This document shows, piece by piece, positions 5,099 to 30,970 of a stretch of 64,000 nucleotides of DNA. The notes beneath the pieces were generated by a model. That model saw only the letters and a list, made by a program, of their open reading frames with translations, was not told the DNA's origin and made no database searches. The position numbers and the translations under genes were made by a program. Numbering within the stretch: position 1 is the first letter of the stretch; each line of letters opens with the position of its first letter. The DNA is taken from the NCBI GenBank assembly GCA_029860045.1, contig JAOUBY010000003.1, positions 65-64,064 on the forward strand, given 5' to 3'. Source of the stretch: Gammaproteobacteria bacterium. Its GTDB lineage: Bacteria; Pseudomonadota; Gammaproteobacteria; UBA9214.

Positions 5099-5209
5099 GT
5101 CGAGCAGCAGGTAATCAACAGGCAGTTATGGGCGGTAATCGCAATGGTTCTGATTCTACCGAATCTCGTGTCAGGTACTTCTCCCGTTAAAAGATCCCGG
5201 GTGTAGTCG

Positions 5210-7309
5210 GTGGCAAACATCGGCGTAACTGGCTACGCACTCGCAGCGACAGCGTATCTTATCTTTACTCTCCTCCTGCTGACCGGATGGCGGGGAAGGC
5301 TACAGAGCAGGTTGCTGGTAATGGCAACCGGCTTCACCGCCCTGTGGGCGATAACCCTGGCAGCCTGGTCGGGATGGGGGATACCCGGCAGCGGTCTGGT
5401 GCAGAGTGTGGAGACCCTGCACTTGCTGGTCTGGCTTGTCTTCATGTTGGGAATCATGCGTTATGCCCAGGGGGGTAAATCGGGCGACAGGGGCAGTATA
5501 CGCAACCTCACCATGTTCATTTATGGCCTCTCGCTGGCGCTGTTGATTGTGCCGTTTATCACTGGCCGGCTGCTATTGGCAGACCAGAGTAAAGAGATCA
5601 GCTTCTTCGGTTATGTGCTGTTGACCATTTGCGGCCTGTTCCTGGTGGAGAACCTGTATCGCAACACCCGCACCGAGCAGCGCTGGGGGATCAAGTTTCT
5701 GTGCCTTGGGGTCGGCGGTCTGTTTGCCTATGACTTTTTCATGTACGCCCAGGCGCTGCTATTCAAACAACTCGATATTTCCCTGTTGAGTGCGCGGGGT
5801 GCTGTATACGCGCTGGTTGCCCCCTTGATTGGTATATCCGTAGCTCGCAACCCGCAGTGGTCGTTAAGCGTATTCATTTCCCAGAAATTGGTCTTTCATA
5901 CGGCGACTCTGCTCGCTGCGGGCGCTTACCTGTTACTGATGGCCGCCGCCGGTTACTACATCAAGACATACGGAGGGGAGTGGGGCGGCGCTCTTCAGGT
6001 TATCTTCCTGTTCGGTGCTGCCGTGGTGCTGCTTGCCCTGTTGTTTTCCGGGCAAATGCGTGCCCGGTTGAGGGTATTTCTTGGCAAGCACTTCTTCCGT
6101 CATCGTTATGATTACCGTGAGCAGTGGCTGAATTTCACAAATGCCCTGTCGCACTGCAAGCAGGATGCCCTGCCGCACGAATGCGTGGTGCGTGCAATAG
6201 CGGACGTAGTGGACAGCTCCGGTGGCCTGTTGTGGCTGCACCGCAAGGACGGCTGCCTGGAGCAGGTCTCACACTGGGGTGTCTCGGGTGGAGAAAGCGA
6301 GGTAATTGAGGGTGACGATGTGCTTGTCCGGTACCTGGAGGAACGTGCCTGGGTGATCAACCTGGATGAGTACCAGGCAGACCCGGAACTGTATGCACCG
6401 CTTGAATTGCCGGACTGGGTAGCTGAGCTGCCGCGTGCCTGGCTGCTTGTGCCATTGCTGGACCAGGGTCGCTTGCTCGGTATTGTTGTCCTCACGCAAC
6501 CGCGCGCAAGTGTGCCGTTTAACTGGGAACTGCGCGACCTGTTGAGAACCGCGGCATCCCAGGCAGCCAGTCACCTGGCGCAACTGGAGGCCGTAGAGGC
6601 ACTGGCCGAGGCCCGTCAGTTCGAGGGTTTTCACCGTCTGTCGGCTTTTGTACTACACGACATCAAGAACCTGATAGCCCAGCAGTCACTGCTGGTTGGC
6701 ACGGCCGCACGTCACAAGCACAAGCCCGAGTTTATCGATGACGCCATCGATATCATGGCGCATTCCGTGGCGAAGATGCAGCGTCTCATGCAGTTGTTGC
6801 GTACGGGGGTATCCAGTGGCACGTCCGTTCGGACCAACCTCGTCACGGTGGTGCGTGATGCGGTCGAAAACTGCGCGGCCGGGCGACCGGTCCCACGTTA
6901 TGAATGTGATCTTGATGAAGTCTGGTTGACACTGGACCGTGACCGGATGACATCCGTAATTGAAAACCTGATTCAGAATGCACAGGATGCGACCCCGGAG
7001 GACGGTGTTGTTAATGTCGGTCTGACCCGGGATGATGACCGGCTTGTTGTTGTTATTTCGGATAACGGTTGCGGCATGGATGCGGCGTTTGTACGCGACC
7101 GCCTGTTCCGTCCCTTTGATACAACCAAGGGAGATACCGGCATGGGTATTGGTGCCTATGAGTGCCGTGAGTTTGTACATTCCCTTGACGGTGAATTACA
7201 AATAGAAAGCGAGCCGGGGAAAGGGACATCTGTACGGATTATCCTGCCTGAGGTTGCAACCATGGCTTCAGAAGATGACGGCTTGCCGAATATGGAGTCA
7301 CACGGTTGA
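5210..7309 (+). CDS. prsK: PEP-CTERM system sensor histidine kinase PrsK (multi-TM N-terminus, GAF-like middle, HisKA/HATPase C-terminus); GTG start, exact start uncertain
   Basis: 699 aa with many N-terminal TM helices and a C-terminal HATPase region (DNGCGMD, GMGIGAY). Sits immediately upstream of, and overlapping, a sigma54-type response regulator, the PrsK/PrsR arrangement of exosortase loci. Confidence 0.85.
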   Translation: MANIGVTGYALAATAYLIFTLLLLTGWRGRLQSRLLVMATGFTALWAITLAAWSGWGIPGSGLVQSVETLHLLVWLVFMLGIMRYAQGGKSGDRGSIRNLTMFIYGLSLALLIVPFITGRLLLADQSKEISFFGYVLLTICGLFLVENLYRNTRTEQRWGIKFLCLGVGGLFAYDFFMYAQALLFKQLDISLLSARGAVYALVAPLIGISVARNPQWSLSVFISQKLVFHTATLLAAGAYLLLMAAAGYYIKTYGGEWGGALQVIFLFGAAVVLLALLFSGQMRARLRVFLGKHFFRHRYDYREQWLNFTNALSHCKQDALPHECVVRAIADVVDSSGGLLWLHRKDGCLEQVSHWGVSGGESEVIEGDDVLVRYLEERAWVINLDEYQADPELYAPLELPDWVAELPRAWLLVPLLDQGRLLGIVVLTQPRASVPFNWELRDLLRTAASQAASHLAQLEAVEALAEARQFEGFHRLSAFVLHDIKNLIAQQSLLVGTAARHKHKPEFIDDAIDIMAHSVAKMQRLMQLLRTGVSSGTSVRTNLVTVVRDAVENCAAGRPVPRYECDLDEVWLTLDRDRMTSVIENLIQNAQDATPEDGVVNVGLTRDDDRLVVVISDNGCGMDAAFVRDRLFRPFDTTKGDTGMGIGAYECREFVHSLDGELQIESEPGKGTSVRIILPEVATMASEDDGLPNMESHG

Positions 7310-8679
7310 ACACTCAAAACAAAACGATTCTGATAGTCGAGGACGATCCTGGTCTGCAGAAGGCGCTGCGCTGGGCCTTTAATGATTTCGAGGTAGTGAC
7401 GGCCGAGGATCGCAAGAGCGCCATTGCACAACTGCGCCGCCACGAACCGCAGGTCGTCACACTGGACCTGGGGCTGCCGCCGGACCCGGGTGGCGCCAGC
7501 GAAGGCCTGGCCACGCTACAGGAACTCCTCAGCCTTGCACCGGGTACCAAGGTAATCGTGGTCACCGGGAACAATGACCGGGAAAACGCCGTGCGTGCCA
7601 TCGGGCTGGGGGCCTGGCTGTTCTTCCAGAAACCCGTGGACCCCGAGCTGCTGGGGGTTATCGTGGAGCGCGCCTACAATCTGCACGAACTGGAGCAGGA
7701 GAACAGGGACCTGTCCCGCCAGGATATCAAGGAACCCATGTCCGGGATCATCGCGACGAGTCCGCAGATGCTGCAGGTTTGCCAGACCATCGAGAAGGTC
7801 GCACCCACTGATGCAACCTCGCTGCTGCTGGGAGAAAGCGGGACTGGCAAGGAATTACTGGCGCGCGCACTGCATGACCTCAGCCCACGGGCAAAACAGC
7901 GTTTTGTCGCTATCAACTGTGCCGCCATACCGGACACCCTGCTGGAAAGTGAGTTGTTCGGTTATGAGAAAGGGGCCTTCACGGGCGCTGCCAAGCAGAC
8001 CCAGGGCAATATTGAATATGCCGATGGCGGCACTCTGTTTCTGGATGAAGTTGGCGATCTGCCGCTGGCACTGCAGGCGAAGCTGCTGCGGTTCCTGCAG
8101 GAAAGGATTGTCGTTCGTGTCGGTGGTCGGAAGGAGATACCGGTGGATGTGCGTGTGGTATCCGCTACACACCAGAATCTGGAGGAACTGATCAGCAAAG
8201 GTGCATTCAGGGAAGATCTGTATTACCGGATTAGCGAAATCTCCATCCGTATTCCCGCCCTGAGGGAACGGGAGGGGGAAGCCAGCATACTGGCAAATTA
8301 CTTCCTTGACCGAGAGACAAAGCAGCAGAACAAGGGCCATCTTGCGTTGAGTAAAGACGCGGGTGATGCCATTGATGCATACACCTGGCCGGGCAACGTG
8401 CGTGAGCTTGCCAATCGCATCAAGCGCGCTGTCATTATGACGGAAGGCAAGCAGGTTACGGCGCGGGATCTTGAATTCTCAACAGACGGAGAGGCGGAGT
8501 CGCTGCCACTGAACCTGCGGGAGGTTAGAGAAAAGGCTGAATGTAACGCTTTGCTGCGGGCCTTGAATCATTCCGGGGGTAACGTGTCTCAGGCAGCACA
8601 GTCACTGGGTATTACTCGTCCGACATTCTATGCGATGGCCAAGAAGTACAAGCTGGATATCGGTCAAACCGGAACCTGA
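7306..8679 (+). CDS. prsR: PEP-CTERM-box sigma54-dependent response regulator PrsR (NtrC family); TTG start overlapping prsK stop
   Basis: Receiver domain (ILIVEDD...TLDLGLPP), AAA+ sigma54-interaction domain (GESGTGKE Walker A, GAFTGA loop, FLDEVGDL) and a C-terminal HTH. Confidence 0.9.
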   Translation: MNTQNKTILIVEDDPGLQKALRWAFNDFEVVTAEDRKSAIAQLRRHEPQVVTLDLGLPPDPGGASEGLATLQELLSLAPGTKVIVVTGNNDRENAVRAIGLGAWLFFQKPVDPELLGVIVERAYNLHELEQENRDLSRQDIKEPMSGIIATSPQMLQVCQTIEKVAPTDATSLLLGESGTGKELLARALHDLSPRAKQRFVAINCAAIPDTLLESELFGYEKGAFTGAAKQTQGNIEYADGGTLFLDEVGDLPLALQAKLLRFLQERIVVRVGGRKEIPVDVRVVSATHQNLEELISKGAFREDLYYRISEISIRIPALREREGEASILANYFLDRETKQQNKGHLALSKDAGDAIDAYTWPGNVRELANRIKRAVIMTEGKQVTARDLEFSTDGEAESLPLNLREVREKAECNALLRALNHSGGNVSQAAQSLGITRPTFYAMAKKYKLDIGQTGT

Positions 8680-11516
8680 TGTCGGACAACGAGCGCACAC
8701 GGACGCAGCAAGCGATGCCCCGGGGGAACAGGAAGATGTTTGCAAATCACTGGTATTACCGGATGGTCCTGATTATCGGACTGCTTGTGCCCGGAGCGGT
8801 TTTAAGTGCTGTTGCCACAGCGCAGGACTACCTTGAGGATGCCCTGACCCTTTTCGACAAGGGCGAATACAATGCCGCGCTTATCCAGCTGAAGAATGTA
8901 TTGCTGCTGGAGCCGGACAACGCCGGGGCATACCTGTTGCTGGGCAAGGCCCACCTTGAAAGGGGCGATGCCGCCTCGGCTGAAAGGGAAATCTCCCGTG
9001 CCCGTGACCTGGACCTTGATGCGGCCGAGTGGATGGCGCCACTGGGAAGGGCCTGGCTGCTGCTGGGAAGGAATGATGAGCTGCTGAAAGAGCTAACGCC
9101 TGAGGAGCGATTCCCCGACACCGTGCGCGCCGATATCCTGCAACTGCAGGGGCAGGCCCATCTCGCCAAGCGGCAGTTCCGGGAGGCCGATGACAAATTT
9201 TTTGCTGTCCTGGTGTTACAGCCCGGCAACCCCGAGGCCTTGCTGGGGAGGGCGCGTATTGCCTACCACAGGCAGGAAAGGGAGAAAGCCTCTGAACTCA
9301 TTGAAGAGGCATTGCAGCGCGATCCACGCAATGCGGATGCCTGGATGATGAAAGGTGGCCTGTTGAGCGGTGCGGGCGATCAAAAGGGTGCCATCAGTGC
9401 CTACCGGCGGGCACTGGATATTGACCCGGAAATGAGTGCCGCCCGTGCCGGGAAGACCGCGGCGCATATTGCGCTGGGTGAGTATGCCCCGGCCCTTGCA
9501 GAGATCGCGGCAATCCGCGGGCGCTATCCGGATAATTACATGGCACATTACCTGGAGGCGCTGGTGCACTTCCGGAAACAGGACATGAACCGGGCGCTGA
9601 CCTCCATCCATAATGCCCTGGGTGCAGCGCCACGCCACTTGCCGAGCCAGTTACTGGCCGGTTCTATCTATTACCGGAAGGGTCAGTATCGTCAGGCAGA
9701 GGAGTATCTTCGAAAGTATTGGAATGCTCGTCCGGGCGAAATCCAGGCCACCAGGCTGCTGGCAGTTTCGCTGGTGAAAACCGGCCAGGCAGAGGATGCC
9801 ATCACGGTCCTTGAAAAGGGTGTTGAGATTGAGCCGGATGACGCCCAGATGCTGGCCATACTGGGCAGTTTGTACACCCGTACCGGGCAGGCAAACAAGG
9901 GGCTCGACTACCTGGAGAGGGCAACCGCCGCCGCGCCGGATTCCGGCGCAATACTGACCGAACTCGCCATCGGGCACCTGGCAACCGGGGATGCCGGCCA
10001 GGCCGTTACGGAACTGCAGGGGGCAGTGGAACTCGGGGATGAGTTTATCCAGGCAGACACCCTGCTGGTGCTGATGCATCTCAAGCGGGGCAATACGGGG
10101 GATGCATTACGCAGCGCCGAACACTTCGTCAGCAATCACCCGGACAATGCCGTTGCCCGGAACCTGCTGGGCAGTGCCTACCTTGCAAAGAGGGACTACC
10201 CGGCGGCGCGTGCCGCCTTCGAGCAGGCGCTGGCGCTGGATGACGCCTTGGTACCGGCCCTGCTGAGTCTTGCGGGTATCGACCAGCTCCAGGGTGACAG
10301 GACATCGGCGGAGCAGCGCTACCGGGCGGTGCTCAAGCAGGACGAGGGCAATCTGAAGGCATTGCTGGCACTGGGGAAACTGGCGGTCGAACAGGACGAT
10401 AAGGCGGCGGCCAAGGATTTCCTGCTGCAGGCGCGCGGCAGCCATCCGGATGCCATCAAACCCGCGCTGTTGCTGGTTGAACTCTACCGGCAGGACCAGG
10501 ATATCAAGCGGGCACTGGATCTGGCGCGGAGCGTGGGTAAAGCTCATCCACGTAATCCCGGGGTGTTAAAGGTCCTGGCGCGTGCCCAGATCGACGCCGG
10601 TGAAATCGATGCGGCCATTACCAGTTTGCGAACGCTGACTGAGGTCGCGCCGCTTTCTGCGCAGGCGCATTATCAGATTGCGCTGCTCTACCTGCGACAG
10701 AAGAACAGAGCGGCGACCCGGGAGAGTCTCGAGCGGGCGATTGCATTACAGGCTGATTATCCGTCCGCGCAGCTTGCCCTTGGCAGGTTCGAAATCGTGG
10801 GAAAAAACTATGCCGTGGCGCAAAAGATAGCCGAGGCCCTGCAGCAGGCCCATCCACAGGCCGCGGGTGGCCATGCACTCGAAGGCGATATCCTGGCCGC
10901 ACAGGGTCAAAATAAACCGGCGCTGGCCGCCTACAGGAAGGCATATGGTCTCAAGCCGAGTGCGCGGTTTGCGATTAATATTTTCAACATGCAGCGCCGG
11001 GCAGGTGAGGGCAAGCAGGCCAGCGACACCCTGCAGAAATGGCTGAAGGATCATCCGGGGGACAACGCCACCAGGATGGTGCTGGCCACACACCTGCAAC
11101 AGCAGAAACGGCTGGATGAGGCGACCACAGAATATCTGGCGATACTCGGACAGGACCCGGATAATATTACGGCATTGAGCAACCTTGCCTGGCTCTATCA
11201 AAAACAGGGCTCCGACAAGGGCATCGCCTATGCCGAACAGGCCTATGAACTGGCCCCGCAGCGCGCGGAGGTCATCGACATCCTCGGCTGGCTGCTGGTG
11301 CAGAACGGTCAGCACCAGCGCGGCCTGGTGCTGCTGCAGGAGGCAGCGACCCTCGCCCCGCGGGAGGCCGGGATTCGTTACCATATGGCCGCCGCCCTGG
11401 TGAAGGTCGGGCGCACCGAGGAGGCGCGCAAGGAGCTGGAGCGGTTGCTCGGCGGAAAGGATTTCCCTGCCGCCGGCGAGGCCCGGTCACTGCTGGAGCG
11501 GCTGAGACGCCCGTGA
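8679..11516 (+). CDS. prsT: PEP-CTERM system TPR-repeat protein PrsT (secreted); start ambiguous (8679-8736)
   Basis: About 945 aa of TPR repeats, with a signal-peptide-like segment MFANHWYYRMVLIIGLLVPGAVLSAVATAQ. Position directly after prsR matches the conserved prsK-prsR-prsT order. Confidence 0.85.
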   Translation: MSDNERTRTQQAMPRGNRKMFANHWYYRMVLIIGLLVPGAVLSAVATAQDYLEDALTLFDKGEYNAALIQLKNVLLLEPDNAGAYLLLGKAHLERGDAASAEREISRARDLDLDAAEWMAPLGRAWLLLGRNDELLKELTPEERFPDTVRADILQLQGQAHLAKRQFREADDKFFAVLVLQPGNPEALLGRARIAYHRQEREKASELIEEALQRDPRNADAWMMKGGLLSGAGDQKGAISAYRRALDIDPEMSAARAGKTAAHIALGEYAPALAEIAAIRGRYPDNYMAHYLEALVHFRKQDMNRALTSIHNALGAAPRHLPSQLLAGSIYYRKGQYRQAEEYLRKYWNARPGEIQATRLLAVSLVKTGQAEDAITVLEKGVEIEPDDAQMLAILGSLYTRTGQANKGLDYLERATAAAPDSGAILTELAIGHLATGDAGQAVTELQGAVELGDEFIQADTLLVLMHLKRGNTGDALRSAEHFVSNHPDNAVARNLLGSAYLAKRDYPAARAAFEQALALDDALVPALLSLAGIDQLQGDRTSAEQRYRAVLKQDEGNLKALLALGKLAVEQDDKAAAKDFLLQARGSHPDAIKPALLLVELYRQDQDIKRALDLARSVGKAHPRNPGVLKVLARAQIDAGEIDAAITSLRTLTEVAPLSAQAHYQIALLYLRQKNRAATRESLERAIALQADYPSAQLALGRFEIVGKNYAVAQKIAEALQQAHPQAAGGHALEGDILAAQGQNKPALAAYRKAYGLKPSARFAINIFNMQRRAGEGKQASDTLQKWLKDHPGDNATRMVLATHLQQQKRLDEATTEYLAILGQDPDNITALSNLAWLYQKQGSDKGIAYAEQAYELAPQRAEVIDILGWLLVQNGQHQRGLVLLQEAATLAPREAGIRYHMAAALVKVGRTEEARKELERLLGGKDFPAAGEARSLLERLRRP

Positions 11517-11603
11517 ATTAAAACCTGGCACGACCTGCAGGTGCTGTAACTTGTGTTAAGTACCGGGGGCGTCAATTCTTATAAGGAACAGAAGGGATTC
11601 ATC

Positions 11604-14399
11604 ATGATTTCAAGATCGAGCAGACTGACAGTCGTTACTTCCACCATGCTGATGGTGCTTACCCTGTTGCTCGGCGGCTGCAGCGAGTCCCTCACCGATG
11701 CCGAGCACCTGGTGCGGGCCAGGGATCATATCGACGAAGGCGATGTCAGTGCCGGTATGATCGAGCTCAAAAACGCACTCAAAGTCAATCCAGGGAATGT
11801 CGAGGCGCGCTGGCTGCTGGGCAAGACCTATGTCGAAATCGGCCATATCGTGGGGGCAGCGAAGGAATTACGCAAGGCCGAAGAGCTCGGCATCGACCGC
11901 TCGGCGATTCTGTTGCCGCTGGCGCACACGCTTATCGCGATGCGCGGCTACCAGACGGTGCTGGACGAGTACCTGCCCGTGCCGGGCCTCGCCGAGGAAG
12001 AGGTGGCAGAACTGAAAGCACTCCACGGCCATGCCCACCTGGGTCTGGGTGATCTGAAACAGGCCGCCGCGACCTATGAGGAGGCCCGGACACTCAATCC
12101 GGAGGAAGCCGAGGCCTGGTACGGGCTGGCGCAGGTTGACATATTCAAGCGTGAGTGGGATGGCGCACGCAGCAACCTCGACAAGGCCCTGGAACTCGAT
12201 CCCCGCTTCGCGAATGCCTGGAGCCTGTCCGGTGACCTGGCACGGCGACAGGGGGACGCGGCGCGGGCAGAGGCGGATTACGGCAAGGCGATCGCCAACC
12301 GGGTGTACAACAGCCAGGATCACTTCAAGCGGGGTCAGGTCCGTTTACAGCTGAAAAAATACGATGCGGTGAAACAGGATATCGCGGCGATCCGTGCGCA
12401 GGTGCGGCGCAGTGCCCAGGCCAGCTACCTGCAGGGCCTGATCCACCTGCAGCAGGACCGGATCACCGAGGCACAGACGTCGTTCGAGACTGCTCTGGCC
12501 GTCAATCCCGATTACATGCAGGCGGTCTACTATCTAGGCGTGGTCCACTATCTGGCGCAGAACCATCAGCAGGCCAGCACCCATCTTGCCAGGTACTCGG
12601 CCTCCAATCCCGGCTACATCCCGGCGCGGCAGCTGCTGGCGATCCTCGACATGCGCCAGGGTGACTATGCCTCTGCCAGGGAGCGGGTTACGCCGATCCT
12701 GGAACAGCAGCCGGAGAATGCCGTCGCCCTCAAGCTGATGACCAGCATCGCCATGCGGCAGGGGGAGAACGACGAGGTTGTTGAATACCTGCGCAGGTTC
12801 GATGAACTCGAGGCCGGCTCCGCCCAGGCCAGCCTGAACCTGGGGCTCGGGCTGATCGCCGAGGGCGAGGGCGAGCAGGGCATGCTGCAGCTCGAGCAGG
12901 CGCTCGAGCTCGATGCCGATCTCAAAATGGCCGACTTCGCCCTGATCATGAACCACCTGAAGCAGGGACGGCCGGACGAGGCCCTGGCGGCCGCCCGGGA
13001 CTTCACCACCCGCCATCCCGAGAGCCCCATGGCGTGGAACCTGCTGGGTTATGTCCAGTTGCAGGGCAAACAGGTCGAGGCGGCCCGCGCGAGTTTCCAG
13101 CGCGCACTGAAGATAAGCTCCGGCGATCCCGGGGCGGCCAACAACCTGGCCTCGCTGGCCCTGCTGGACGGCGACACCGGCGAGGCCATCCGACAGTATG
13201 AATCGATCCTCGAACGCCGGCCGGATCACATGCGCACCGTGGTGAAGCTCGGCAGGCTGCTGGTCTCGCTGAAACGCTTCGATGAGGCACAGGCGCTTTA
13301 CGAGGCCAGGGTCGAGGCACATCCAGATGCAGTCGATCCGCGGGTGCTGCTGGCGGAGATCCATATGCTGCAGGGGCAACCCGGCAGGGCGCTCGCCCTG
13401 CTGCGGGCGGCCCCGGAGTCGGTCACTGATCACCCGGCCTACCTGGCCGTGCTGGGAAAGGGCCAGCTTGCGGCCGGTGAGCTCGCCAGTGCCATCCGCA
13501 GCCTGGAACGGCTGATCAAGGTCCGGCCAGGCTACCTGCCGGCCCACGATATGCTTGCCGGGGCCTACGCCAGGCAGGGCAACCTGGGCAAGCTCGAGGC
13601 CAGCCTCGACCAGGCGCTGGCCATCCGGCCCGGTCACCTGCTGGCGCGGCTCGGCATGCTGAAGCTGCTCGTCCAGCAGAAGCGGGCCGGGGAGGCGGCC
13701 GAACTGCTGGCGGCCCTCAAGGCGGACTACCCGGAACTCCCGGAACTCTATATCCAGGAGGCGCTGCTCGCGCAGGCCGAGGGTCGGCCGCAGGCGGCGG
13801 TACCGGCCTACCAGGAGGCCGTGAAGCGCGCACCAAGTACGGAACTGGTGAGCGACCTGGCGCTGGCCCAGTGGAAGGCCGGACAGCCGGAGGCCGGCCT
13901 ACAGACCCTGAAGGACTGGCTCGCCGGGCACCCCGATGACCTTGTCGTACGTTACAACCTGGCAAACCTGTACATGGCGACCGGGCGGCACGCGGAGGCG
14001 CGCGTGGCCTTCACGACGGTGGTTGAAGCACGACCGAAGCATGTACTGGCGCTGACCAACCTGGCGCTGCTGAGCCGGAATTTGGATCCCGGCAAGGCCT
14101 ATGATTATGCGAAACGCGCCCACGAGCTCGCGCCCGATGCACCACTCGTTCAGGACGCCCTGGCGCAGATCCATCTCGACCGGGACGAGGGCACACAGGC
14201 GCTGCGCCTGCTCGAGACGGCCGTGGAAAAATCGCCGCAGGACCTGCAGATCCGTTTCCACTGGGCGCAGGCCCTGGCCCGCAACGGCGAGAAGGAGAAG
14301 GCAAGACGGGAACTCACCCGCGTCCTGGCGGAGGACAGGCGATTCGCCGGTAAATCGGAGGCACGGGATATGCTGGAACAACTCTCCAGCGGCAAGTAA
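11604..14399 (+). CDS. Second PrsT-like TPR-repeat lipoprotein (tandem paralog)
   Basis: TPR repeats throughout; start chosen at ATG 11604 (AGGGA 6 nt upstream), giving MISRSSRLTVVTSTMLMVLTLLLGGCSES with the lipobox LLGGC. About 930 aa. Confidence 0.8.
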   Translation: MISRSSRLTVVTSTMLMVLTLLLGGCSESLTDAEHLVRARDHIDEGDVSAGMIELKNALKVNPGNVEARWLLGKTYVEIGHIVGAAKELRKAEELGIDRSAILLPLAHTLIAMRGYQTVLDEYLPVPGLAEEEVAELKALHGHAHLGLGDLKQAAATYEEARTLNPEEAEAWYGLAQVDIFKREWDGARSNLDKALELDPRFANAWSLSGDLARRQGDAARAEADYGKAIANRVYNSQDHFKRGQVRLQLKKYDAVKQDIAAIRAQVRRSAQASYLQGLIHLQQDRITEAQTSFETALAVNPDYMQAVYYLGVVHYLAQNHQQASTHLARYSASNPGYIPARQLLAILDMRQGDYASARERVTPILEQQPENAVALKLMTSIAMRQGENDEVVEYLRRFDELEAGSAQASLNLGLGLIAEGEGEQGMLQLEQALELDADLKMADFALIMNHLKQGRPDEALAAARDFTTRHPESPMAWNLLGYVQLQGKQVEAARASFQRALKISSGDPGAANNLASLALLDGDTGEAIRQYESILERRPDHMRTVVKLGRLLVSLKRFDEAQALYEARVEAHPDAVDPRVLLAEIHMLQGQPGRALALLRAAPESVTDHPAYLAVLGKGQLAAGELASAIRSLERLIKVRPGYLPAHDMLAGAYARQGNLGKLEASLDQALAIRPGHLLARLGMLKLLVQQKRAGEAAELLAALKADYPELPELYIQEALLAQAEGRPQAAVPAYQEAVKRAPSTELVSDLALAQWKAGQPEAGLQTLKDWLAGHPDDLVVRYNLANLYMATGRHAEARVAFTTVVEARPKHVLALTNLALLSRNLDPGKAYDYAKRAHELAPDAPLVQDALAQIHLDRDEGTQALRLLETAVEKSPQDLQIRFHWAQALARNGEKEKARRELTRVLAEDRRFAGKSEARDMLEQLSSGK

Positions 14400-15688
14400 T
14401 GAACCAGGCGCCGGAGGGCAAGGAAGCCGCCAACAACAAGACCGGCAAGCGTCGCCGGGTGCTGTTTATCGCAGAAGCGGTTTCCCTTGCCCATGTGGCG
14501 CGTCCTGCCGTGCTGGCGCAGGCGCTCGATCCGGAACAATATACGGTCTGCCTGGCCTGCGATCCCCGCTTCGATGCACTGTTCACTGAATTGCCGTTTG
14601 AACGCAGGTCTATTTATTCGATATCGACGCAAAGCTTTCTTGCAGCACTTGCCAAAGGCAGCCCGATCTACACAACCTCGACGCTGCGGCGCTATGTCCG
14701 GGATGACCTGGAACTGCTCCGTGCCTGGTCGCCTGATCTGGTGGTGGGCGACTTCCGCCTGTCGCTGGCGGTCAGTGCGCGCGCGGCCGGCATCCCCTAT
14801 CTAACCATTACCAATGCCTACTGGAGCCCGTATGCCCGGCAGCGCTATCCCATCCCGGAACACGTGATGGCCCGACTTGTGGGGGTCGATCTGGCACAAG
14901 CACTGTTTCGACTGGTGCGCCCGCTGATCTTTGCTGCCCATACCATCCCCATGAACAGGGTCAGGAAGGAATGGGGTCAGCCTCTGCTTGGCACTGACCT
15001 GAGACGGGTCTATACCGATGCCGACCATACCCTCTATGCCGATGTGCCGGGTTTTATTGAAACAGCGGGAATGCCCGATGACCATCATCACTTCCTGGGG
15101 CCGGTGCTGTGGTCTCCGCCGCAGGCCTTTCCCGATTGGTGGAACGAGGTACGTAACGACCGACCCATTATCTATGTCACACCAGGCAGTTCCGGTGACA
15201 GTCGTCTGTTGACGAACGTACTCCAGGCGCTGGCCGGGTTACCGGTTGAGGTCATGGTAGCCACGGCAGGGCAGTCCAGCGCTGCACCGGTACCTGCAAA
15301 CGTGCACTCTGCGGACTATCTCCCGGGCATGCAGGCGGCCGCACGCGCCGACCTGGTGATCTGTAACGGTGGCAGTCCAACCACGCAGCAGGCGCTGGCG
15401 GCCGGGACCCCCGTGCTGGGCATCTGCAGCAATCTCGACCAGTATCTGAACATGCAGGCCGTCGCAACAACCGGGGCGGGGATGATGTTGCGCGCCGGCA
15501 AGGCGAGCGTGGGCGCAGTCCGCGCCGCGGTCGAGCGCCTGCTGGCGGACCCGTCTTGCCAGGAAGCCGCACAACGGATGGCGGATCGCTACCGGGTATA
15601 CGACGCAAATCAGCGCTTCAGTTCCATTGTGGAACAGCTATTGCCGGTCACGGGCGGCACGGCGGCAACCGGGGGTGAACTGGCGTGA
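14399..15688 (+). CDS. Family 1 glycosyltransferase (UDP-glycosyltransferase/MGT-like)
   Basis: 429 aa; the N-terminal RRVLFIAEAVSLAHVARPAVLAQAL and C-terminal nucleotide-sugar-binding region (HSADYLPG...VICNGGSPTTQQALAAGTPVLG) are typical of GT1/UGT-like enzymes. Confidence 0.65.
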   Translation: MNQAPEGKEAANNKTGKRRRVLFIAEAVSLAHVARPAVLAQALDPEQYTVCLACDPRFDALFTELPFERRSIYSISTQSFLAALAKGSPIYTTSTLRRYVRDDLELLRAWSPDLVVGDFRLSLAVSARAAGIPYLTITNAYWSPYARQRYPIPEHVMARLVGVDLAQALFRLVRPLIFAAHTIPMNRVRKEWGQPLLGTDLRRVYTDADHTLYADVPGFIETAGMPDDHHHFLGPVLWSPPQAFPDWWNEVRNDRPIIYVTPGSSGDSRLLTNVLQALAGLPVEVMVATAGQSSAAPVPANVHSADYLPGMQAAARADLVICNGGSPTTQQALAAGTPVLGICSNLDQYLNMQAVATTGAGMMLRAGKASVGAVRAAVERLLADPSCQEAAQRMADRYRVYDANQRFSSIVEQLLPVTGGTAATGGELA

Positions 15689-15886
15689 ATTCTGCTTACC
15701 GGGGAATGTCGCAATCCAGACTCACAGTATGCGACCATGTGACACTGGTCCTTGTGCCACCGCACGATCACTGTTACAAGATTGCCACGGCAGTTCGAAG
15801 AAATTAACAGGCGGTGTCTGAGGCCCATATTCATTACATGCAATGCCGGTTGCCAGGATCTACTGTCACACAGGAAGCGAGCAATA

Positions 15887-16729
15887 ATGAGTTACAAGCT
15901 GATCAAGGACCGGTACTTCGCCACCCTCGGCTGGACCAACCGGGAAAACGCCAGCGATGCCAAGGTGGCCTTCATGAACGACGTCGACATGACGTCGGCC
16001 ATCCGGCTGCGAGAGAAATACACGGACCTGAAACCGTCCTATACTGCCCTGCTGGCACGGGCCATCGCCCTGGCGATACGGGAACATCCCAAGGCCAACC
16101 GGATGGTGCTGGCATTGCCGTTCTACAAGCGGATCGTGCAGTTCGACGCGATCAATATCACCATCGCCATCGAGCAGCAGCAGAAAGATGCAAGCAAGGA
16201 CACGGTACTCGCCGACACGGTATACCATGTCGATCAGAAGTCACTGTCCGACATCATGGTCCAGCTGCACGAGATGGCCCGGGCGACACCCGAAAACAAT
16301 CCGCGTCAGCGTCAGCTGGCCTTCATTGTGGAGAAGCTGCCCAACTGGCTGGCCCTGCTGCTGATCAGCATTCCGCGCTGGTTCCCGGGCATGTGGGTGC
16401 AGCACCGGGGCGGCTCCGTGCTGATCTCCTCGCCCTGCAAATACGGTGTCGAGCGGCTGGTCGCGAACTGGAGCTGGCCGATCGGCTTTTCCTTCGGCCT
16501 GCTGAGAAAACAGCCCGTGGTGGTGGCTGACGAAGTCGTTGTCCGGCCCGTCATGAGCGTGACCATGAGCTTCGACCGCCGGGTGCTGCTGGGGGCGCCC
16601 GCCGCCAGGTTCTTCAAGCGGGTCTGCGACCTGCTGGAGAATGCGGAGGAAACGCTGGATATGGATAGCCCTGCAACGCCCGCGATGCAGGAAGGCCGCA
16701 ACGCGGCGGCGAGGGAAGATGTGGCATAA
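15887..16729 (+). CDS. 2-oxoacid dehydrogenase E2 catalytic-domain-like (CAT-fold) protein with substituted catalytic His
   Basis: Start at ATG 15887 (AGGAAG RBS). The C-terminal SFDRRVLLGAPAARFFKRV aligns to the E2/CAT motif sFDHRviDGaxaarF with His->Arg and Asp->Leu changes; length of about 280 aa fits a stand-alone catalytic domain. Confidence 0.5.
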   Translation: MSYKLIKDRYFATLGWTNRENASDAKVAFMNDVDMTSAIRLREKYTDLKPSYTALLARAIALAIREHPKANRMVLALPFYKRIVQFDAINITIAIEQQQKDASKDTVLADTVYHVDQKSLSDIMVQLHEMARATPENNPRQRQLAFIVEKLPNWLALLLISIPRWFPGMWVQHRGGSVLISSPCKYGVERLVANWSWPIGFSFGLLRKQPVVVADEVVVRPVMSVTMSFDRRVLLGAPAARFFKRVCDLLENAEETLDMDSPATPAMQEGRNAAAREDVA

Positions 16730-18977: not shown

Positions 18978-20261
18978 TTACGCCTTCAGGGTGGTGGTCC
19001 GGCGGCGGCGGACGCCGTTCAGGCCCATGAGACCCATGCCCATGCCCAGCAGGGCGATCGTACCCGGCTCCGGAACCCGCGTGATGCGGAAGGCCTGGTT
19101 GGCATCGGTCTGGAAGATGACATCTTCGCCAGTTAATGGCAAGAAGCACTCCTCCACAGTTCCGCCAGCAACTAGGCAATCATTGAAAGCCTGATTGGTG
19201 GCAGGATCGCCACCATTAAGAAAGTCCTGGGCGGTGAGCACTGTGCCATCAGTCAGAACGATGGTGTCCAGGTCGGCGAAGGTAATTTCCCCTTCCTGCA
19301 GGCAGACCAGGTCGGCACTGCTTGCGCCCGCCGTGTTGTCATAGCAGAACGACGGATTGGTCTCGTTGAAGGGAATCACGTTCTCGGTGCTGAACGTCGT
19401 ATCAAAGAATATCGAAGCAAGCAGATCCTTGAAGAAGGCAAAATCCTGGAAGGCCACTTCCGCCTCGAGGTCGGTGGCGCCCTCACCAGTCACGGTGAAA
19501 GTGATGTCACCGGCCGCTGGCTCGCCTGCCCAGTTGTCGACGCCAAAGGAGTCCAGCAGGGCTGGGTCTAAGATCTGATCGCCGGTGGTGAACAACCCGT
19601 TCCCGTCCAAGTCGACAAAGGTGTACTGAGTGCTCGTAAAATTACCCGAGATATCACCCAGCTGCGAGGAGCTCATGATCAACTGCCCATCGTCAAAGCC
19701 GGTTCCACTCAGGATGTCGGACTTTTGACCTGAGGCATCCCCCAGGTCGTCGTAGTAGAGCTCGAAGAAGATATCCTCCGAAGCGAGGGAGAACGTCTGA
19801 GTGCCTCCAATTTCATATATATCGTTACCGCTACCATCCGTCCCAATAAGAGTGCTGCTGAATGAGGCATCCGTAACCAATTCTGTGCCACCGAAGACAT
19901 AGGTCCATTCCCACAAATTGTTGATGCCAAGGGGGCTACTCGGGTTGCCACCTGCATCGGCATAGCCCTGCAATGCGGCTTGGCTATAGACTTCGAAGCT
20001 GCAATTGGTACCATTCAGGGTGGGGCCAGAAGCACCACAATCACCGCCGCTTGTAATAAAGTCTTCACCGGCCGTCATGGAACCTATCGTCAGGCTGGAC
20101 CCCACCGCCCAGTCAAGGGAGCCGACCTCTTCGTTACCAGTCAGACCGTCGCTACCGGTGAAGTCGATCGTGACTGTATCGGTGGGTTCACCTAACGCCA
20201 GCGCGGAGGTGCTCGCGAGGGCCATTGATACTCCCACGGCCACAAAGGAAATTTTATTCAT
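18978..20261 (-). CDS. PEP-CTERM domain protein (exosortase substrate), secreted
   Basis: Signal peptide MNKISFVAVGVSMALASTSALA. The C-terminus RVPEPGTIALLGMGMGLMGLNGVRRRR is a textbook PEP-CTERM signal (VPEP, TM helix, Arg cluster). AAGGAG RBS. Confidence 0.9.
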   Translation of the reverse strand: MNKISFVAVGVSMALASTSALALGEPTDTVTIDFTGSDGLTGNEEVGSLDWAVGSSLTIGSMTAGEDFITSGGDCGASGPTLNGTNCSFEVYSQAALQGYADAGGNPSSPLGINNLWEWTYVFGGTELVTDASFSSTLIGTDGSGNDIYEIGGTQTFSLASEDIFFELYYDDLGDASGQKSDILSGTGFDDGQLIMSSSQLGDISGNFTSTQYTFVDLDGNGLFTTGDQILDPALLDSFGVDNWAGEPAAGDITFTVTGEGATDLEAEVAFQDFAFFKDLLASIFFDTTFSTENVIPFNETNPSFCYDNTAGASSADLVCLQEGEITFADLDTIVLTDGTVLTAQDFLNGGDPATNQAFNDCLVAGGTVEECFLPLTGEDVIFQTDANQAFRITRVPEPGTIALLGMGMGLMGLNGVRRRRTTTLKA

Positions 20262-26599: not shown

Positions 26600-28579
26600 T
26601 CATTCCTGCCAAAGCAGTTTTTCGAACGGTTTTCTGATAGAGCGCGCTGTCGGGTCGCGACCCGCGCCGATTCTGCCCATGAAGACGGCGTGTTCAACCT
26701 TTTCCGGTAATACCAGTTGTGCAAGCCGGTCGGCCAGTTTCCCTGCCAGTTCCTGACTGTGTTTATTTTCCGAAAACGCCACATTATCCCGTGTGTAGCC
26801 ACTGAATATCAGCGGTGTCATTTCCGGCTGGAGTTTCAGGCCATGCAGGGTGGCCGTCAGCCAGAAACGTTGCACGGCGCGGCCGGCTGCTACAAAGTCA
26901 TCCAGGGTTTCCGCTGGGCGGGATGCCATGATTATAAAATGTGACGCGCATGCGATTCCGGGAATGAAGTCCAGTTCCACGCGCGGAATGAGTGTTCCGC
27001 CCATGAAGCGATTGAGGAAGTCCACGCGCCGCCAGCTGACCATGGCCCAGCGCATCAGCTGCAAGGTCATGGGATCCAGCCCTACCGCCCTGGCGGGAAC
27101 CCGGTCTTCACTGTGCCTGGAATCCCACTGGATGATGGACCTGTGTGTTTCAAAGGCTTCAGGAAGGGTAAGGCGCAGGCCACCATTCTGGAATAGCAGT
27201 CGCGCCATACGCAAACGGTCGCGGAAATCATTGAACCATACAATGCGATATTCACTGCCAACGGCCGTCTCCAGCTGTTCTCGAACGCTGGCAGTAACCG
27301 GCCGGGTTGATAGCGGCCGCCGTTGTACAGTGCGCTCGCTGATAAAGGGCAGCAAGGGATCTTTCTGGATATTCGGGTCAGCAAGGAATGCGACATCGAA
27401 GGTCGGACTGGTCGCAGGCAGTCCCGGGCGTGCCCGGAACTCGGCGTACAGGCCATGGTGACTGGCCGCGATGCTGATGGTTTCAAGCAGCGTGCCCAGT
27501 GCGAGCTGGCTGGCATGGCCCCTCAGGTCGTAGACGCAGTGCTCGCGCGTATCGTGGCCGTGAATAACCGCATGGTGCGGGTCGATAATTTCAAACCGCC
27601 ACGGCTGGCTGTTGTCTCCGCTGGGGGCCCAGCGGGCATGATCCAGTATTTGCCGGGCCACGCTGTTACTGGCTCCGGCTGCTTTGCCCCCGTCAGGGGG
27701 CGGGGCAGATGTTAATTTCTGGCTGAATCTGCGTCTTGCCAGCATGAGGCCAAGTTGTTGCAGCGGGTTTCGATTCCCTCCCGGGCGCCAGGTTGTAACC
27801 AGTTGGTTACGGTAGGCGTCGAAATGAAGGCCGTGTGGTGCGGCAATGACCTTGCCGCGTCCAAGCAGTATTTTCAGTGCCTGGGTGGCCGCAATGCCGG
27901 AGCACAGCTCGCAGGCCATTGGAGTTGATGGCCCCCGGTGTTCGGCAAGCCTGACTGCTGTCGGGTCAACCAGGTAGCGACCCTGCAGCATGGCAGGAGA
28001 AAGGCCGAGCAGGAACCGCAGCAACTGTTCTTCCTCGTCATGGCCATCAAGTTGAAAGTATTCCTCGAACGTCATGCTGCCGGGCAGAAAATTCAATAAC
28101 GCGGCGCCCATGCCAAGCGGTGCAGCGGTAACCGCCGGAACACCCAGCCGGCTGCAGGAATCGAACGCAGCACGTCGTGCCTCAAGGGCAAAAAAATCCA
28201 GACCGTCGATGTACAGGTCAATACCCGTCAGAAAATCATCTGCATTGCCCTGATCAATCCCGTCGGGGAATATTCTCAGGTCAAGCTCCGGGTTGATGTC
28301 CAGCGCACGTTCTGCAAGGGCATCGGTCTTCTTTCTTTCGAGGGTGGAGAGGGCGGCTCCTGCCTGGCGGTTGAAATTCGCGATCTCGAAGGAGTCGAAG
28401 TCAGCCAGTGTGAAGGCGCCGATCCCGAGACGTGTCAGGGTCAGCAGGTGACTGCCCCCGACGCCGCCGAGTCCTGCAATGGCGACACGTTTGGTGCGCA
28501 GTGTGGCTTGCTCTGATGATGTGACCCAGCCGATGTTGCGTGAGAATGCGGCTGTATAGTCGAATTGGCCTGTCGACAT
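26600..28579 (-). CDS. Fusion protein: N-terminal ThiF/MoeB E1-like adenylyltransferase domain plus C-terminal nitroreductase-superfamily (SagB/McbC-like) domain
   Basis: N-terminus RVAIAGLGGVGGSHLLTLTRLGIGAFTLADFDSFEIANFNRQ (E1 Rossmann GxGxxG plus NxxRQ). C-terminal half ARQILDHARWAPSGDNSQPWRF is nitroreductase signature. ATG at 28579 preferred over the TTG at 28600. Confidence 0.8.
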   Translation of the reverse strand: MSTGQFDYTAAFSRNIGWVTSSEQATLRTKRVAIAGLGGVGGSHLLTLTRLGIGAFTLADFDSFEIANFNRQAGAALSTLERKKTDALAERALDINPELDLRIFPDGIDQGNADDFLTGIDLYIDGLDFFALEARRAAFDSCSRLGVPAVTAAPLGMGAALLNFLPGSMTFEEYFQLDGHDEEEQLLRFLLGLSPAMLQGRYLVDPTAVRLAEHRGPSTPMACELCSGIAATQALKILLGRGKVIAAPHGLHFDAYRNQLVTTWRPGGNRNPLQQLGLMLARRRFSQKLTSAPPPDGGKAAGASNSVARQILDHARWAPSGDNSQPWRFEIIDPHHAVIHGHDTREHCVYDLRGHASQLALGTLLETISIAASHHGLYAEFRARPGLPATSPTFDVAFLADPNIQKDPLLPFISERTVQRRPLSTRPVTASVREQLETAVGSEYRIVWFNDFRDRLRMARLLFQNGGLRLTLPEAFETHRSIIQWDSRHSEDRVPARAVGLDPMTLQLMRWAMVSWRRVDFLNRFMGGTLIPRVELDFIPGIACASHFIIMASRPAETLDDFVAAGRAVQRFWLTATLHGLKLQPEMTPLIFSGYTRDNVAFSENKHSQELAGKLADRLAQLVLPEKVEHAVFMGRIGAGRDPTARSIRKPFEKLLWQE

Positions 28580-28848
28580 TAACCTGTTTCCGGGTTGCAA
28601 ATACCAATTTACGACATTGAATTCAGCATGGAAGCAGTTGCTGATCGATTCTGGCGCCCGACATGATTTCTACCAGGCAAAGTTCTGTGGCGCTAATAGT
28701 ATGTTGTGTCAGGTGGTGTGTCTAATGCTATTAAGAGGACTGACCTGGCGACGTCCTTCTGGCGTGACCATGCATTGACCTGTTTAATCGATGCCGGCTT
28801 TTCATGCCTGACCTGAAAGGCGGTTTCAGATGCCGGTATAACGTCAAT

Positions 28849-28864
28849 TGTGACGCTTGTCACA
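28849..28864. promoter_or_regulatory. Perfect CRP/FNR-type palindrome TGTGA-N6-TCACA in a divergent intergenic region
   Basis: TGTGACGCTTGTCACA: both half-sites match the CRP core exactly with 6-nt spacing. It lies between the E1-nitroreductase gene (minus) and acyltransferase gene 1 (plus), about 190 nt from the latter. Confidence 0.45.
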
Positions 28865-29055
28865 GATTAAGGGAGCGCAAGGCAGCTCAGTTGTGGTGTT
28901 GTTCTCAATACAATCAATGTCCTGCCGATAGGATGTTTATTGTTATCCAAGGTTCGCATGTGATGTGTTTGGGTGAGTTCATGGAGAACCTGAGCCTGCC
29001 GACTGAGATGTTCCGGTTACCATCCATAGTGAGTCGTCGTTGAAGAGACGAAAAT

Positions 29056-29829
29056 ATGAGTGATTTGTGTGATTTATTTTTTCAGTACTTTGATGTCATT
29101 CTGGACGATCAGCCGGGTGTTATAGACGAAGCCACCAGACTTCGCTACCAGGTGTATTGCATAGAAAATGATTTTGAGGATGCGTCCCGGTTTGATGATG
29201 ACAGGGAAGTGGATGAGTATGACCGGCGTTCTGTTCACAGTGTTGTCAGGCACAGGAAGCTGGGAGTAACCGCAGCCTCTGTCAGGCTGGTCCTGTCAGA
29301 CCAGGAATGTCCTGAAGCGCTTTTCCCGATCGAGGAGAACTGTGCTGCATCCCTAAAGGCCTGTCCTTCAATCTTTCGTGGTATCCCGCGCAATGCCATA
29401 GCTGAAATATCACGCTTTGCCGTTTCCAAGGATTTCAAGCGCCGGCATGGCGAGGCCGGCAACCCTGCCGGTGTCGGTCCAGACCCGGACCGGTATCTAA
29501 CGCCTGATTTAAACAGGCGGAGAGTCATTCCCCACCTGATCCTGGGTTTATTTGCCGCGATAGTAAAAATGAGTGCAGAGCATCATGTTACCCACTGGTA
29601 TGCCGTGATGGATGTTTCTCTGCTGCGCCTGTTGACCCGCTTTGGTATCAACTTCATGCCCATGGGAGGGCAGGTGGATTACCATGGATTGCGGCAACCC
29701 TGCTTTGGCAGTGTGGACGAGGTGCTGGCCGGGATATGGGAGAAACGCCCGGATATCTGGCGCTTGATCACTGCTGACGGGGTCGTATGGCCAGCCCCGG
29801 CAGATCATGCCGTGAGTGCCGGTGGATAG
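29056..29829 (+). CDS. GNAT-fold N-acyl amino acid synthase/autoinducer-synthase-like acyltransferase (PEP-CTERM/exosortase-associated acyltransferase family), copy 1
   Basis: 257 aa; the RLRYQVYCIENDFED N-terminal block and overall length match FeeM/NasY-type N-acyl amino acid synthases and the exosortase-associated acyltransferase family (TIGR03694-like, from memory). Confidence 0.7.
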   Translation: MSDLCDLFFQYFDVILDDQPGVIDEATRLRYQVYCIENDFEDASRFDDDREVDEYDRRSVHSVVRHRKLGVTAASVRLVLSDQECPEALFPIEENCAASLKACPSIFRGIPRNAIAEISRFAVSKDFKRRHGEAGNPAGVGPDPDRYLTPDLNRRRVIPHLILGLFAAIVKMSAEHHVTHWYAVMDVSLLRLLTRFGINFMPMGGQVDYHGLRQPCFGSVDEVLAGIWEKRPDIWRLITADGVVWPAPADHAVSAGG

Positions 29830-30096
29830 TGTTGGGTGGTAGAACGCTGCGGGTGATTTGATCGATTCGCTTTACCGGTTAGCCAACATAGTCTTCAATC
29901 TGTCCCTCCGGCTTTCCTGTCGCTAGCTAGTGACATTGAAATACCAATAAAAACAGATAGGTATATAAATTATATTAAATGCTGTCGTCACCCGGCGACA
30001 GTTCTGCCGAGCAGAGTGTTGTATTGCCCCGGTTTTACCCTGTGGGCTACCCCATTGATTTTTTAACTCACTGTAATTACTGATTAATAGTGTCTC

Positions 30097-30112
30097 TGGC
30101 ACGATTATCGCA
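30097..30112 (+). promoter_or_regulatory. sigma54 (RpoN) -24/-12 promoter for acyltransferase copy 2
   Basis: TGGCACGattaTCGCA: 7/7 -24 element, canonical GG-N10-GC spacing, -12 TCGCA vs TTGCW. About 100 nt upstream of the ATG at 30215. Confidence 0.6.
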
Positions 30113-30214
30113 TTTCCCATGCGTAATTTAGCTTCATGACATGGAAACAGGCCACTGGGCCGCCGTGTCCATGAGCGAACCGCAAACTACTTTTCCCGGG
30201 TTGATGACAAGCAC

Positions 30215-30970
30215 ATGAGCGAACTCTATAACACGTTTCATAGCCATTTCGACGTGGTCTCGGCGGATACCGTCGGCCTGATGGAGACGGCCTTCAGGAT
30301 GCGTTACCAGGTCTATTGCCTGGAGAGGTCATACGAAGATGCAGAGTCCTTTCCGGACCAAATGGAGATTGACGAGTTCGATATGCACTCGGCCCACAGC
30401 CTGGTGAGGTGCCAGCGATCCGGGCAGTATGCTGGCCTGGTCAGGCTGGTCCTGCCAAATCCGGTAGATATGGACAAGCCGTTACCACTGGAGAAATTCT
30501 GCCACTCTGCCATGCAGAAAGCGGGTATTGATTTATCTTCCATTCCCCGGGACCGCATGGCTGAAATCTCGAGATTTTCGATTTCAAAGGAACTAAAGCG
30601 TCAGTGTGCGCAGAAGTCTGCTGTTTCAGCCACCGGTGATGTTGTTGATGGCGTGGATACCCGGATGACGCCACAAATAGTACTCGGTCTGTTTGCGGGG
30701 GTCGTTCGAATGAGTGCCCAGAACAATATTACTCACTGGTTGGCTGTTATGGAGCCAACCTTGCTCAGGTTCCTTTCACGCTATGGCATCTACTTCCAGA
30801 AGATCGGGCCGGTGATTGACTATCATGGCCGGCGGCAACCGACGGTTGCGAGCATCGATTCAGTATTGTCAGGGATTTATGCCCATCGTAAGGATGTCTG
30901 GGAAGTGATTACTGATTTTGGAAATGTCTGGCCGTTGGATAAGGAAGTCAAACATTTTGCAATGCCGTAG
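30215..30970 (+). CDS. GNAT-fold N-acyl amino acid synthase-like acyltransferase, copy 2 (tandem paralog)
   Basis: 251 aa; alignable to copy 1 throughout (FRMRYQVYCLERSYEDAESFPD...MAEISRFSISKELKR...THWLAVMEPTLLRFLSRYGI). Confidence 0.7.
   Translation: MSELYNTFHSHFDVVSADTVGLMETAFRMRYQVYCLERSYEDAESFPDQMEIDEFDMHSAHSLVRCQRSGQYAGLVRLVLPNPVDMDKPLPLEKFCHSAMQKAGIDLSSIPRDRMAEISRFSISKELKRQCAQKSAVSATGDVVDGVDTRMTPQIVLGLFAGVVRMSAQNNITHWLAVMEPTLLRFLSRYGIYFQKIGPVIDYHGRRQPTVASIDSVLSGIYAHRKDVWEVITDFGNVWPLDKEVKHFAMP

Follow-up and report, generated by a model that had tools for sequence, protein, structure and literature searches.

A predicted sigma-54 promoter with GlrR-type enhancer sites upstream of an N-acyl amino acid synthase gene in a gammaproteobacterial exosortase/PEP-CTERM locus

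Gene content of the locus

The 64-kb stretch of DNA analysed here (the window) comes from a MAG of the Gammaproteobacteria and is a canonical XrtA/PEP-CTERM exopolysaccharide locus. The genes on which this analysis turns are the following:

3689-14399: genes encoding an EpsB2-type glycosyltransferase, PrsK, PrsR and, in tandem, two PrsT proteins
18978-20261 (-): PepA-like gene, the only PEP-CTERM protein gene of the window
29056-29829: acyltransferase copy 1 (TIGR03694, 255.2 bits against a cut-off of 111.95)
30215-30970 (+): acyltransferase copy 2, 251 aa, with its ATG at 30215 (TIGR03694, 267.9 bits against the curated NCBIfam cut-off of 111.95)

Export, chain-length, tyrosine-kinase, XrtA and glycosyltransferase genes are also present, as are genes for a LolCDE-like transporter, a ThiF-nitroreductase fusion and a SPOR/DUF1302 protein. 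TIGR03694 is the family of PEP-CTERM/exosortase system-associated acyltransferases; copy 2 is of the N-acyl amino acid synthase type, and its Pfam matches are Acetyltransf_5 (GNAT), FeeM and Autoind_synth (autoinducer-synthase). The public assembly ENA ERZ27296429 splits the window between two contigs (k141_1138531 and k141_2314783), the ends of which overlap by about 141 nucleotides at approximately 14650-14790; this assembly seam lies in or just past the second prsT gene, distant from the promoter of copy 2.

A probable sigma-54 promoter upstream of acyltransferase copy 2

Promoters of the sigma-54 type stay inactive unless the closed complex is contacted, through DNA looping, by an enhancer-binding protein that hydrolyses ATP. 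The GC dinucleotide of such promoters has a standard position of -13/-12. Two features were assigned between the acyltransferase genes:

30096-30112 (+): predicted sigma-54 (-24/-12) promoter CTGGCACGATTATCGCA, with its core TGGCACGATTATCGCA at 30097-30112
30123-30214 (+): predicted 5' untranslated region of copy 2, with a start near 30123 deduced from the standard position of the GC dinucleotide

The core has one mismatch to TGGCAC-N5-TTGCW (C for the first T of TTGC), its GG (30098-30099) and GC (30110-30111) dinucleotides have the canonical 10-nt spacing, and it lies in intergenic DNA in the orientation of copy 2, with 102 nt between its end and the ATG at 30215. Three matches to TGGCACG-N4-TTGCW with at most one mismatch are present in the window versus 0.95 expected, and 11 of 100 shuffled sequences reach three, so the match to TGGCACGATTATCGCA is not significant by itself. 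Motif statistics are therefore insufficient, and the promoter call is based on position and conservation.

All positions on both strands were scored with a sigma-54 weight matrix, which is our own approximation built from the published consensus. At 16.2 bits, the site upstream of copy 2 is the joint best in the window, together with a site ahead of the PEP-CTERM protein gene at 18978-20261 (-); on this approximate matrix the experimentally established sigma-54 promoter of Escherichia coli glmY also scores 16.2 bits.

A metagenome scan and a genome scan yielded 94 loci of the acyltransferase family, among which copy-2 orthologs (59-80% identity) could be told apart from copy-1 orthologs by tblastn, and the tandem order of the two copies is kept in seven loci. 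Twelve copy-2 ortholog loci extend far enough upstream for comparison, and every one has, 94 to 112 nt before the start codon, a sigma-54 site scoring 13.3 to 17.8 bits. For the family as a whole, 12 bits or more are reached in 22 of 118 upstream regions versus 2 of 118 antisense controls, and in 2.6% of random 300-nt windows. Columns in an alignment of copy-2 upstream regions (A1) average only 54% identity, yet the -24 element TGGCA has an invariant T, G and C and the -12 element GC an invariant G; at least 90% of sequences share the second G, the A and, in GC, the C. The start codon is conserved as well. The element at 30096-30112 is very probably a genuine sigma-54 promoter of copy 2, and transcription would be sigma-54-dependent and begin near 30123.

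The predicted 92-nt leader of copy 2 has no match in Rfam at E <= 1, GlmY and GlmZ included, and no conserved base pairs were found by RNAalifold among 13 leaders; a riboswitch or small RNA in the leader was rejected on these two grounds.

Two minor observations concern neighbouring sequences. A subclade of copy-2 orthologs (L002-L009) has a strongly conserved block, AAAAGTTRATTATTTTACATTTTG, just 3' of the -12 element and around the predicted start (A1 columns 316-335), which aligns to approximately 30126-30145 of the window without conservation there; towards its 3' side it is similar to ATTATTTACA, with which the PEP-CTERM box, a motif discussed below, ends. Elsewhere in the window, a sigma-54-like site of 12.9 bits (CTGGCGTGAATTCTGCT, 15680-15696 (+)) overlaps the 3' end of a glycosyltransferase gene (14399-15688), 55 nt ahead of an ORF for a 2-oxoacid-dehydrogenase-type acyltransferase (15752-16729).

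Divergent upstream regions of the two acyltransferase paralogs

No sigma-54 site was found before copy 1 in the window, where the best score is 3.0 bits, or before any of nine copy-1 orthologs, where the best is 7.1 bits. A CRP-like palindrome, TGTGACGCTTGTCACA, is present at 28850-28865, and similar palindromes occur at variable positions in five of the nine copy-1 orthologs. All nine share the element yTCAr-N15-GCCGATAs, which in eight of them is 102 to 125 nt before the start codon; the exception is L017, with GTCGATAG at a distance of just 25 nt. The window's version consists of CTCAA (28904-28908) and GCCGATAG (28924-31) on the plus strand, 125 nt before the start of copy 1. The consensus for sigma-28 (FliA) is TAAA-N15-GCCGATAA, and in sequence the copy-1 element CTCAA-N15-GCCGATAG resembles a sigma-28-like promoter. 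An ORF of 79 aa before copy 1 (28804-29043) is probably not a gene, as it matches no family and overlaps the regulatory motifs.

An earlier, sequence-only reading of this DNA had proposed that copy 2 is transcribed from a sigma-54 promoter with a perfect -24 element and a correctly spaced -12 element about 100 nt from the ATG, that copy 1 has instead a CRP-type site and no properly spaced sigma-54 site, and that this suggests differential control of the paralogs. The sequence and coordinates of the promoter were reproduced and the weight-matrix search of the locus agrees with its assignment; the description of copy 1 was likewise confirmed, and the division between the paralogs extends to their orthologs, with a -24/-12 site in every copy-2 ortholog and in none of the nine copy-1 orthologs. 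Different control of the two paralogs is thus supported.

Paired palindromes upstream of the promoter

GlrR (also called QseF or YfhA) has TGTC-N10-GACA as its published recognition sequence; at glmY it binds three such sites more than 100 bp upstream and requires IHF (PMC3045617). Two palindromes of this type precede the promoter of copy 2, with IHF-like DNA between them and the promoter:

29918-29935 (palindromic, no strand given): UAS 1, the distal predicted enhancer site, TGTCGCTAGCTAGTGACA, an 18-bp palindrome of the TGTC-N10-GACA type
29936-29982: AT-rich spacer between UAS 1 and UAS 2, read from the sequence
29983-30000 (palindromic, no strand given): UAS 2, the proximal predicted enhancer site, TGTCGTCACCCGGCGACA, an 18-bp palindrome of the TGTC-N10-GACA type
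30048-30060 (-): IHF-like site TACCCCATTGATT, with one mismatch to YAANNNNTTGATW; weak evidence in the window

UAS 1 and UAS 2 match TGTCG-N9-GACA exactly and are the only two such matches in 64 kb. Their starts are 65 bp apart, compared with 62 to 69 bp across related loci, and UAS 2 starts 114 bp before TGGCAC. Relative to the promoter motif, the palindromes of copy-2 orthologs have fixed positions of about -177 and -112, inside the 70-200 bp range of sigma-54 enhancers, and pairs with a spacing of 62 to 69 bp are also found ahead of sigma-54 promoters in distant members of the family (L024, L042, L051, L056 and L072). Most related loci have an IHF-like site with no mismatch or one, about 31 nt before the promoter motif; the site in the window has a different offset.

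The resemblance to the glmY region of E. coli K-12 goes beyond the outer bases of the palindromes. The consensus of 32 sites, TGTCG-YYA-nn-TGG-n-GACA, also fits the inner bases of ABS2 of E. coli (TGTCGCTTTCTGGCGACA). ABS2 and ABS3 (TGTCTCTTTTTAGCGACA) have starts 63 bp apart, versus 65 bp for the two sites upstream of copy 2, and the proximal site is 107 bp before TGGCAC at glmY versus 114 bp at copy 2. A GlrR-type site accompanies 18 of 23 sigma-54 promoters of acyltransferase genes, versus 1 of 18 promoters of PEP-CTERM genes (Fisher p = 3.6e-6), and is present in only 2.8% of random 160-nt windows. Because the outer bases TGTCG...GACA are conserved and the centres vary without stem covariation, the palindromes are better explained as sites for a dimeric protein than as RNA or terminator hairpins.

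It is very improbable, in our judgement, that the -24/-12 match is incidental, with copy 2 transcribed from an overlooked sigma-70 promoter or by read-through of copy-1 transcription, while the palindromes serve as terminators or repressor sites. Chance alone would produce the motif about once per window, weak terminator-like hairpins can be drawn at 29982-30001, 30001-30017 and 30042-30055, and the conserved tandem order of the two genes would suit read-through; yet the promoter motif recurs at a fixed distance in all 12 copy-2 orthologs, the same module occurs in L042, L051, L056 and L072 without any upstream paralog, and conservation falls on the columns with protein-contact bases (TGTCG/GACA, GG and GC). 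A sigma-70 promoter driving copy 2 was rejected as none was found on the plus strand between 28600 and 31200.

Contrast with PrsR-type promoters

The PEP-CTERM box is a motif of 17 nt ending in TTTACA, followed after a spacer of about 63 nt (range 32 to 92) by a sigma-54 motif, and its predicted binder is PrsR (Haft et al. 2006, PMC1569441). Two arrangements of this kind were found in the window:

20448-20432 (-): PEP-CTERM box TGTCATGATTATTTACA, with a 73-nt spacer to the sigma-54 site of the PepA-like gene at 18978-20261 (-)
20358-20342 (-): top-scoring sigma-54 site CTGGCACGAGTCGTGCT, before the PepA-like gene
3384-3368 (-): PEP-CTERM-box-like unit TGTCAGAATATTTAACA, with a 63-nt spacer to a sigma-54 site
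3304-3288 (-): sigma-54 site CTGGCATTATATTTGCG, ahead of the gene for a 226-aa membrane-anchored protein at 2548-3228 (-)

The promoter of the PepA-like gene is likely the true PrsR target in the window. The 226-aa protein matches no family and lacks a PEP-CTERM tail, and its gene is possibly a non-PEP-CTERM member of the PrsR regulon.

The sequence-only reading had linked copy 2 to the PEP-CTERM regulon on the grounds that PrsR is the only sigma-54 activator encoded in the window. The premise was borne out, no other enhancer-binding protein having been found there, and the prsK and prsR genes are 22 kb from the promoter of copy 2 in the same XrtA/PEP-CTERM locus. The conclusion was not: the enhancer sites are of the GlrR (QseF) type, and no TTTACA-ending 17-nt box is present upstream of the promoter of copy 2 or of its orthologs, although boxes with the expected spacers are available elsewhere in the same window. 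Conversely, among 22 PEP-CTERM genes of related loci, sigma-54 sites scoring 13 bits or more precede 17, typically with TTTACA at about -67, and GTC-N10-GAC is found with only one of the 22.

Activation of copy 2 by PrsR nevertheless has precedents to recommend it. A few PEP-CTERM boxes upstream of genes for proteins other than PEP-CTERM proteins have been noted (Haft et al. 2006, PMC1569441), and three acyltransferase genes of Chromatiaceae that belong to TIGR03694 (L058, L066 and L071) have a PEP-CTERM box 68 to 69 nt before a sigma-54 promoter, an arrangement that precedes the acyltransferase start (6001) by about 150 to 170 nt. Because these three carry the classical box, a link to PrsR is valid for some relatives, and lineages appear to differ in the control of the acyltransferase family, which is of PrsR type in some and of GlrR type in others. 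In its sequence elements the promoter of copy 2 is unlike those of L058, L066 and L071. Since the box recognised by PrsR is known only from bioinformatic prediction, binding of PrsR to TGTC-N10-GACA may be conceivable, and PrsR of the window is a full-length homolog of GlrR; the identity is only 39%, however, and the recognition helix is different. On these comparisons PrsR is probably not the activator, and membership of copy 2 in the PEP-CTERM regulon of this organism is judged unlikely. As a general caution, the nearest activator is not automatically that of a given sigma-54 promoter; it is the sequence of the enhancer, not proximity, that identifies the regulator.

GlrR-type regulators adjoining the acyltransferase gene in related loci

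In seven related loci, the acyltransferase gene adjoins an operon that encodes a histidine kinase, a small lipoprotein and an enhancer-binding protein. In L004, L008 and L015, this glrKPR-type operon is downstream of the acyltransferase gene on the opposite strand; in L042, L051, L056 and L072 it is immediately upstream, so that the two boxes and the promoter lie directly between glrR and the acyltransferase gene. The enhancer-binding proteins of these operons score 615 to 627 bits with the NCBIfam model for GlrR, below its equivalog cut-off of 763 bits, compared with 407 to 439 bits for NtrC and 365 to 386 bits for the PrsR model. Compared with E. coli GlrR, the operon regulator shows 57% identity from end to end and has the same recognition helix (RNRTEFYKLL), and one public annotation source names these proteins GlrR. 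The kinase shares 32% identity with GlrK, likewise along its entire length. The small proteins have lipoboxes or lipoprotein signal peptides, as does QseG, and have no Pfam match to QseG.

Within the 64-kb window, no glrR, glrK or second enhancer-binding protein was found, PrsR being the only hit by tblastn, and none was found in the source contigs for about 9 to 10 kb past each end of the window (L095 and L096). An exact-sequence look-up of four close GlrR homologs placed all of them in other samples, and another ortholog locus, L017, has no adjacent glrR. As no glrR is present in the window or within about 9 to 10 kb of either end, we infer the activator in this organism from its relatives; on the evidence of the enhancer sites and of the linked regulators, it is most likely an ortholog of GlrR (QseF) encoded outside the window.

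The lack of a cognate regulator in the window would also suit a real promoter that answers to some other, uncharacterised enhancer-binding protein, or to cross-talk, through palindromes similar to TGTC-N10-GACA, given that bacteria often encode many activators of the NtrC family with related palindromic sites. Such an activator would have to share with GlrR the inner bases of its site and the spacing of the glmY promoter, and it is GlrR orthologs that are physically linked to the module in seven loci; we rate this explanation as unlikely, as we do activation by PrsR. A GlrR ortholog is thus retained as the preferred activator.

Two differences in gene order among these loci were noted. A 666-aa ThiF-adenylyltransferase/nitroreductase fusion (26600-28600 (-)) is situated between the LolD-like gene and copy 1 in the window. 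The syntenic locus L015 has no such fusion and has glrKPR beyond the SPOR/DUF1302 gene, so the neighbourhood appears to have been rearranged in the lineage of the window. In L042 (approximately 4800-4960) and L051 (approximately 5700-5900), a small hydrophobic ORF that may encode a co-transcribed membrane peptide is found between the GlrR-type promoter and the acyltransferase gene, and in loci with this ORF the promoter is about 350 nt ahead of the acyltransferase gene.

Proposed regulation of copy 2 and comparison with known systems

The GlrK-QseG-GlrR system has been linked to cell-envelope homeostasis in Enterobacteriaceae. In the regulatory model that we favour, and which we consider reasonably probable as a whole, the promoter at 30096-30112 would transcribe copy 2 (30215-30970) from a start near 30123 when an enhancer-binding protein bound to UAS 1 (29918-29935) and UAS 2 (29983-30000) reaches the closed complex through a DNA loop, probably aided by IHF bending at the intervening AT-rich or IHF-like DNA. 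This activator would most likely be a GlrR (QseF) ortholog, the output of the GlrK-QseG-GlrR (QseEGF) system. The elements themselves, their conservation, their fit to the GlrR site and the glmY layout, and the adjacency of glrR in relatives are observations; the transcription start, the dependence on sigma-54, the activator at work in this organism and the signal behind it are deductions.

The promoter of copy 2 is a known kind of element, a sigma-54 promoter with enhancer sites of a known type, and its target is new. Direct targets known for QseF are glmY, glmZ and rpoE in Enterobacteriaceae, and both the targets and the role of QseEF/GlrKR have been called weakly defined (PMC6075780), although qseEGF clusters are widespread in Pseudomonadota (PMC12691602). 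Copy 2 has in common with glmY of E. coli and other Enterobacteriaceae (and with glmZ and rpoE P2) a -24/-12 promoter, TGTC-N10-GACA sites more than 100 bp upstream and, on weak evidence, IHF-like DNA, and in its relatives the target adjoins the kinase-lipoprotein-regulator operon as glmY does, whereas in the window the regulator operon is not adjacent. It differs in that its product is an N-acyl amino acid synthase rather than a small RNA or RpoE, in having two conserved sites rather than three and no detected overlapping sigma-70 promoter, and in that the module comes from uncultured environmental Gammaproteobacteria rather than Enterobacteriaceae.

The likeness to the PEP-CTERM box systems of Haft et al. 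consists in a sigma-54 promoter with an upstream enhancer within an XrtA/PEP-CTERM locus that also encodes PrsK, PrsR and PrsT; here, however, the enhancer is a pair of 18-bp palindromes at -112 and -177 instead of a TTTACA box at about -67. Sigma-54 control is known to operate in such loci, as is proposed for copy 2, from the experimentally mapped RpoN-dependent promoter (TGGCAC / CTGCTT) of pepA in the PEP-CTERM floc-formation system of Aquincola tertiaricarbonis (PMC9850573). Unlike that of copy 2, the pepA promoter drives a PEP-CTERM protein gene and has a predicted PrsR-type enhancer rather than GlrR-type sites.

No description of an N-acyl amino acid synthase under GlrR-type control turned up in the literature searched. 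We tentatively suggest, at somewhat less than even confidence, that in environmental Gammaproteobacteria without GlmY an N-acyl amino acid synthase is a direct target that the QseE-QseG-QseF (GlrK-GlrR) system turns on, here within an exosortase/PEP-CTERM locus. If so, lipoamino-acid production would be a previously unrecognised and perhaps ancestral output of QseE-QseG-QseF, and copy 2 would provide a concrete GlrR target outside the enterics. An envelope-homeostasis system would be linked to synthesis of a lipid-like metabolite in a PEP-CTERM/exosortase context, and the locus would be under two sigma-54 circuits, PrsKR for sorted proteins and GlrKR for one acyltransferase paralog.

Boxes of the same type were also noted next to GlrK-lipoprotein-GlrR operons in MAGs of other marine Gammaproteobacteria. 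In L099 (8428-8815), L101 (8482-8941) and L102 (8428-8813), two TGTC-N10-GACA boxes about 66 bp apart are located 3' of the operon, followed by a strong sigma-54 promoter about 300 to 440 bp further on, before unrelated genes that encode a 563-587-aa unknown protein or an F5/8 type C domain protein.
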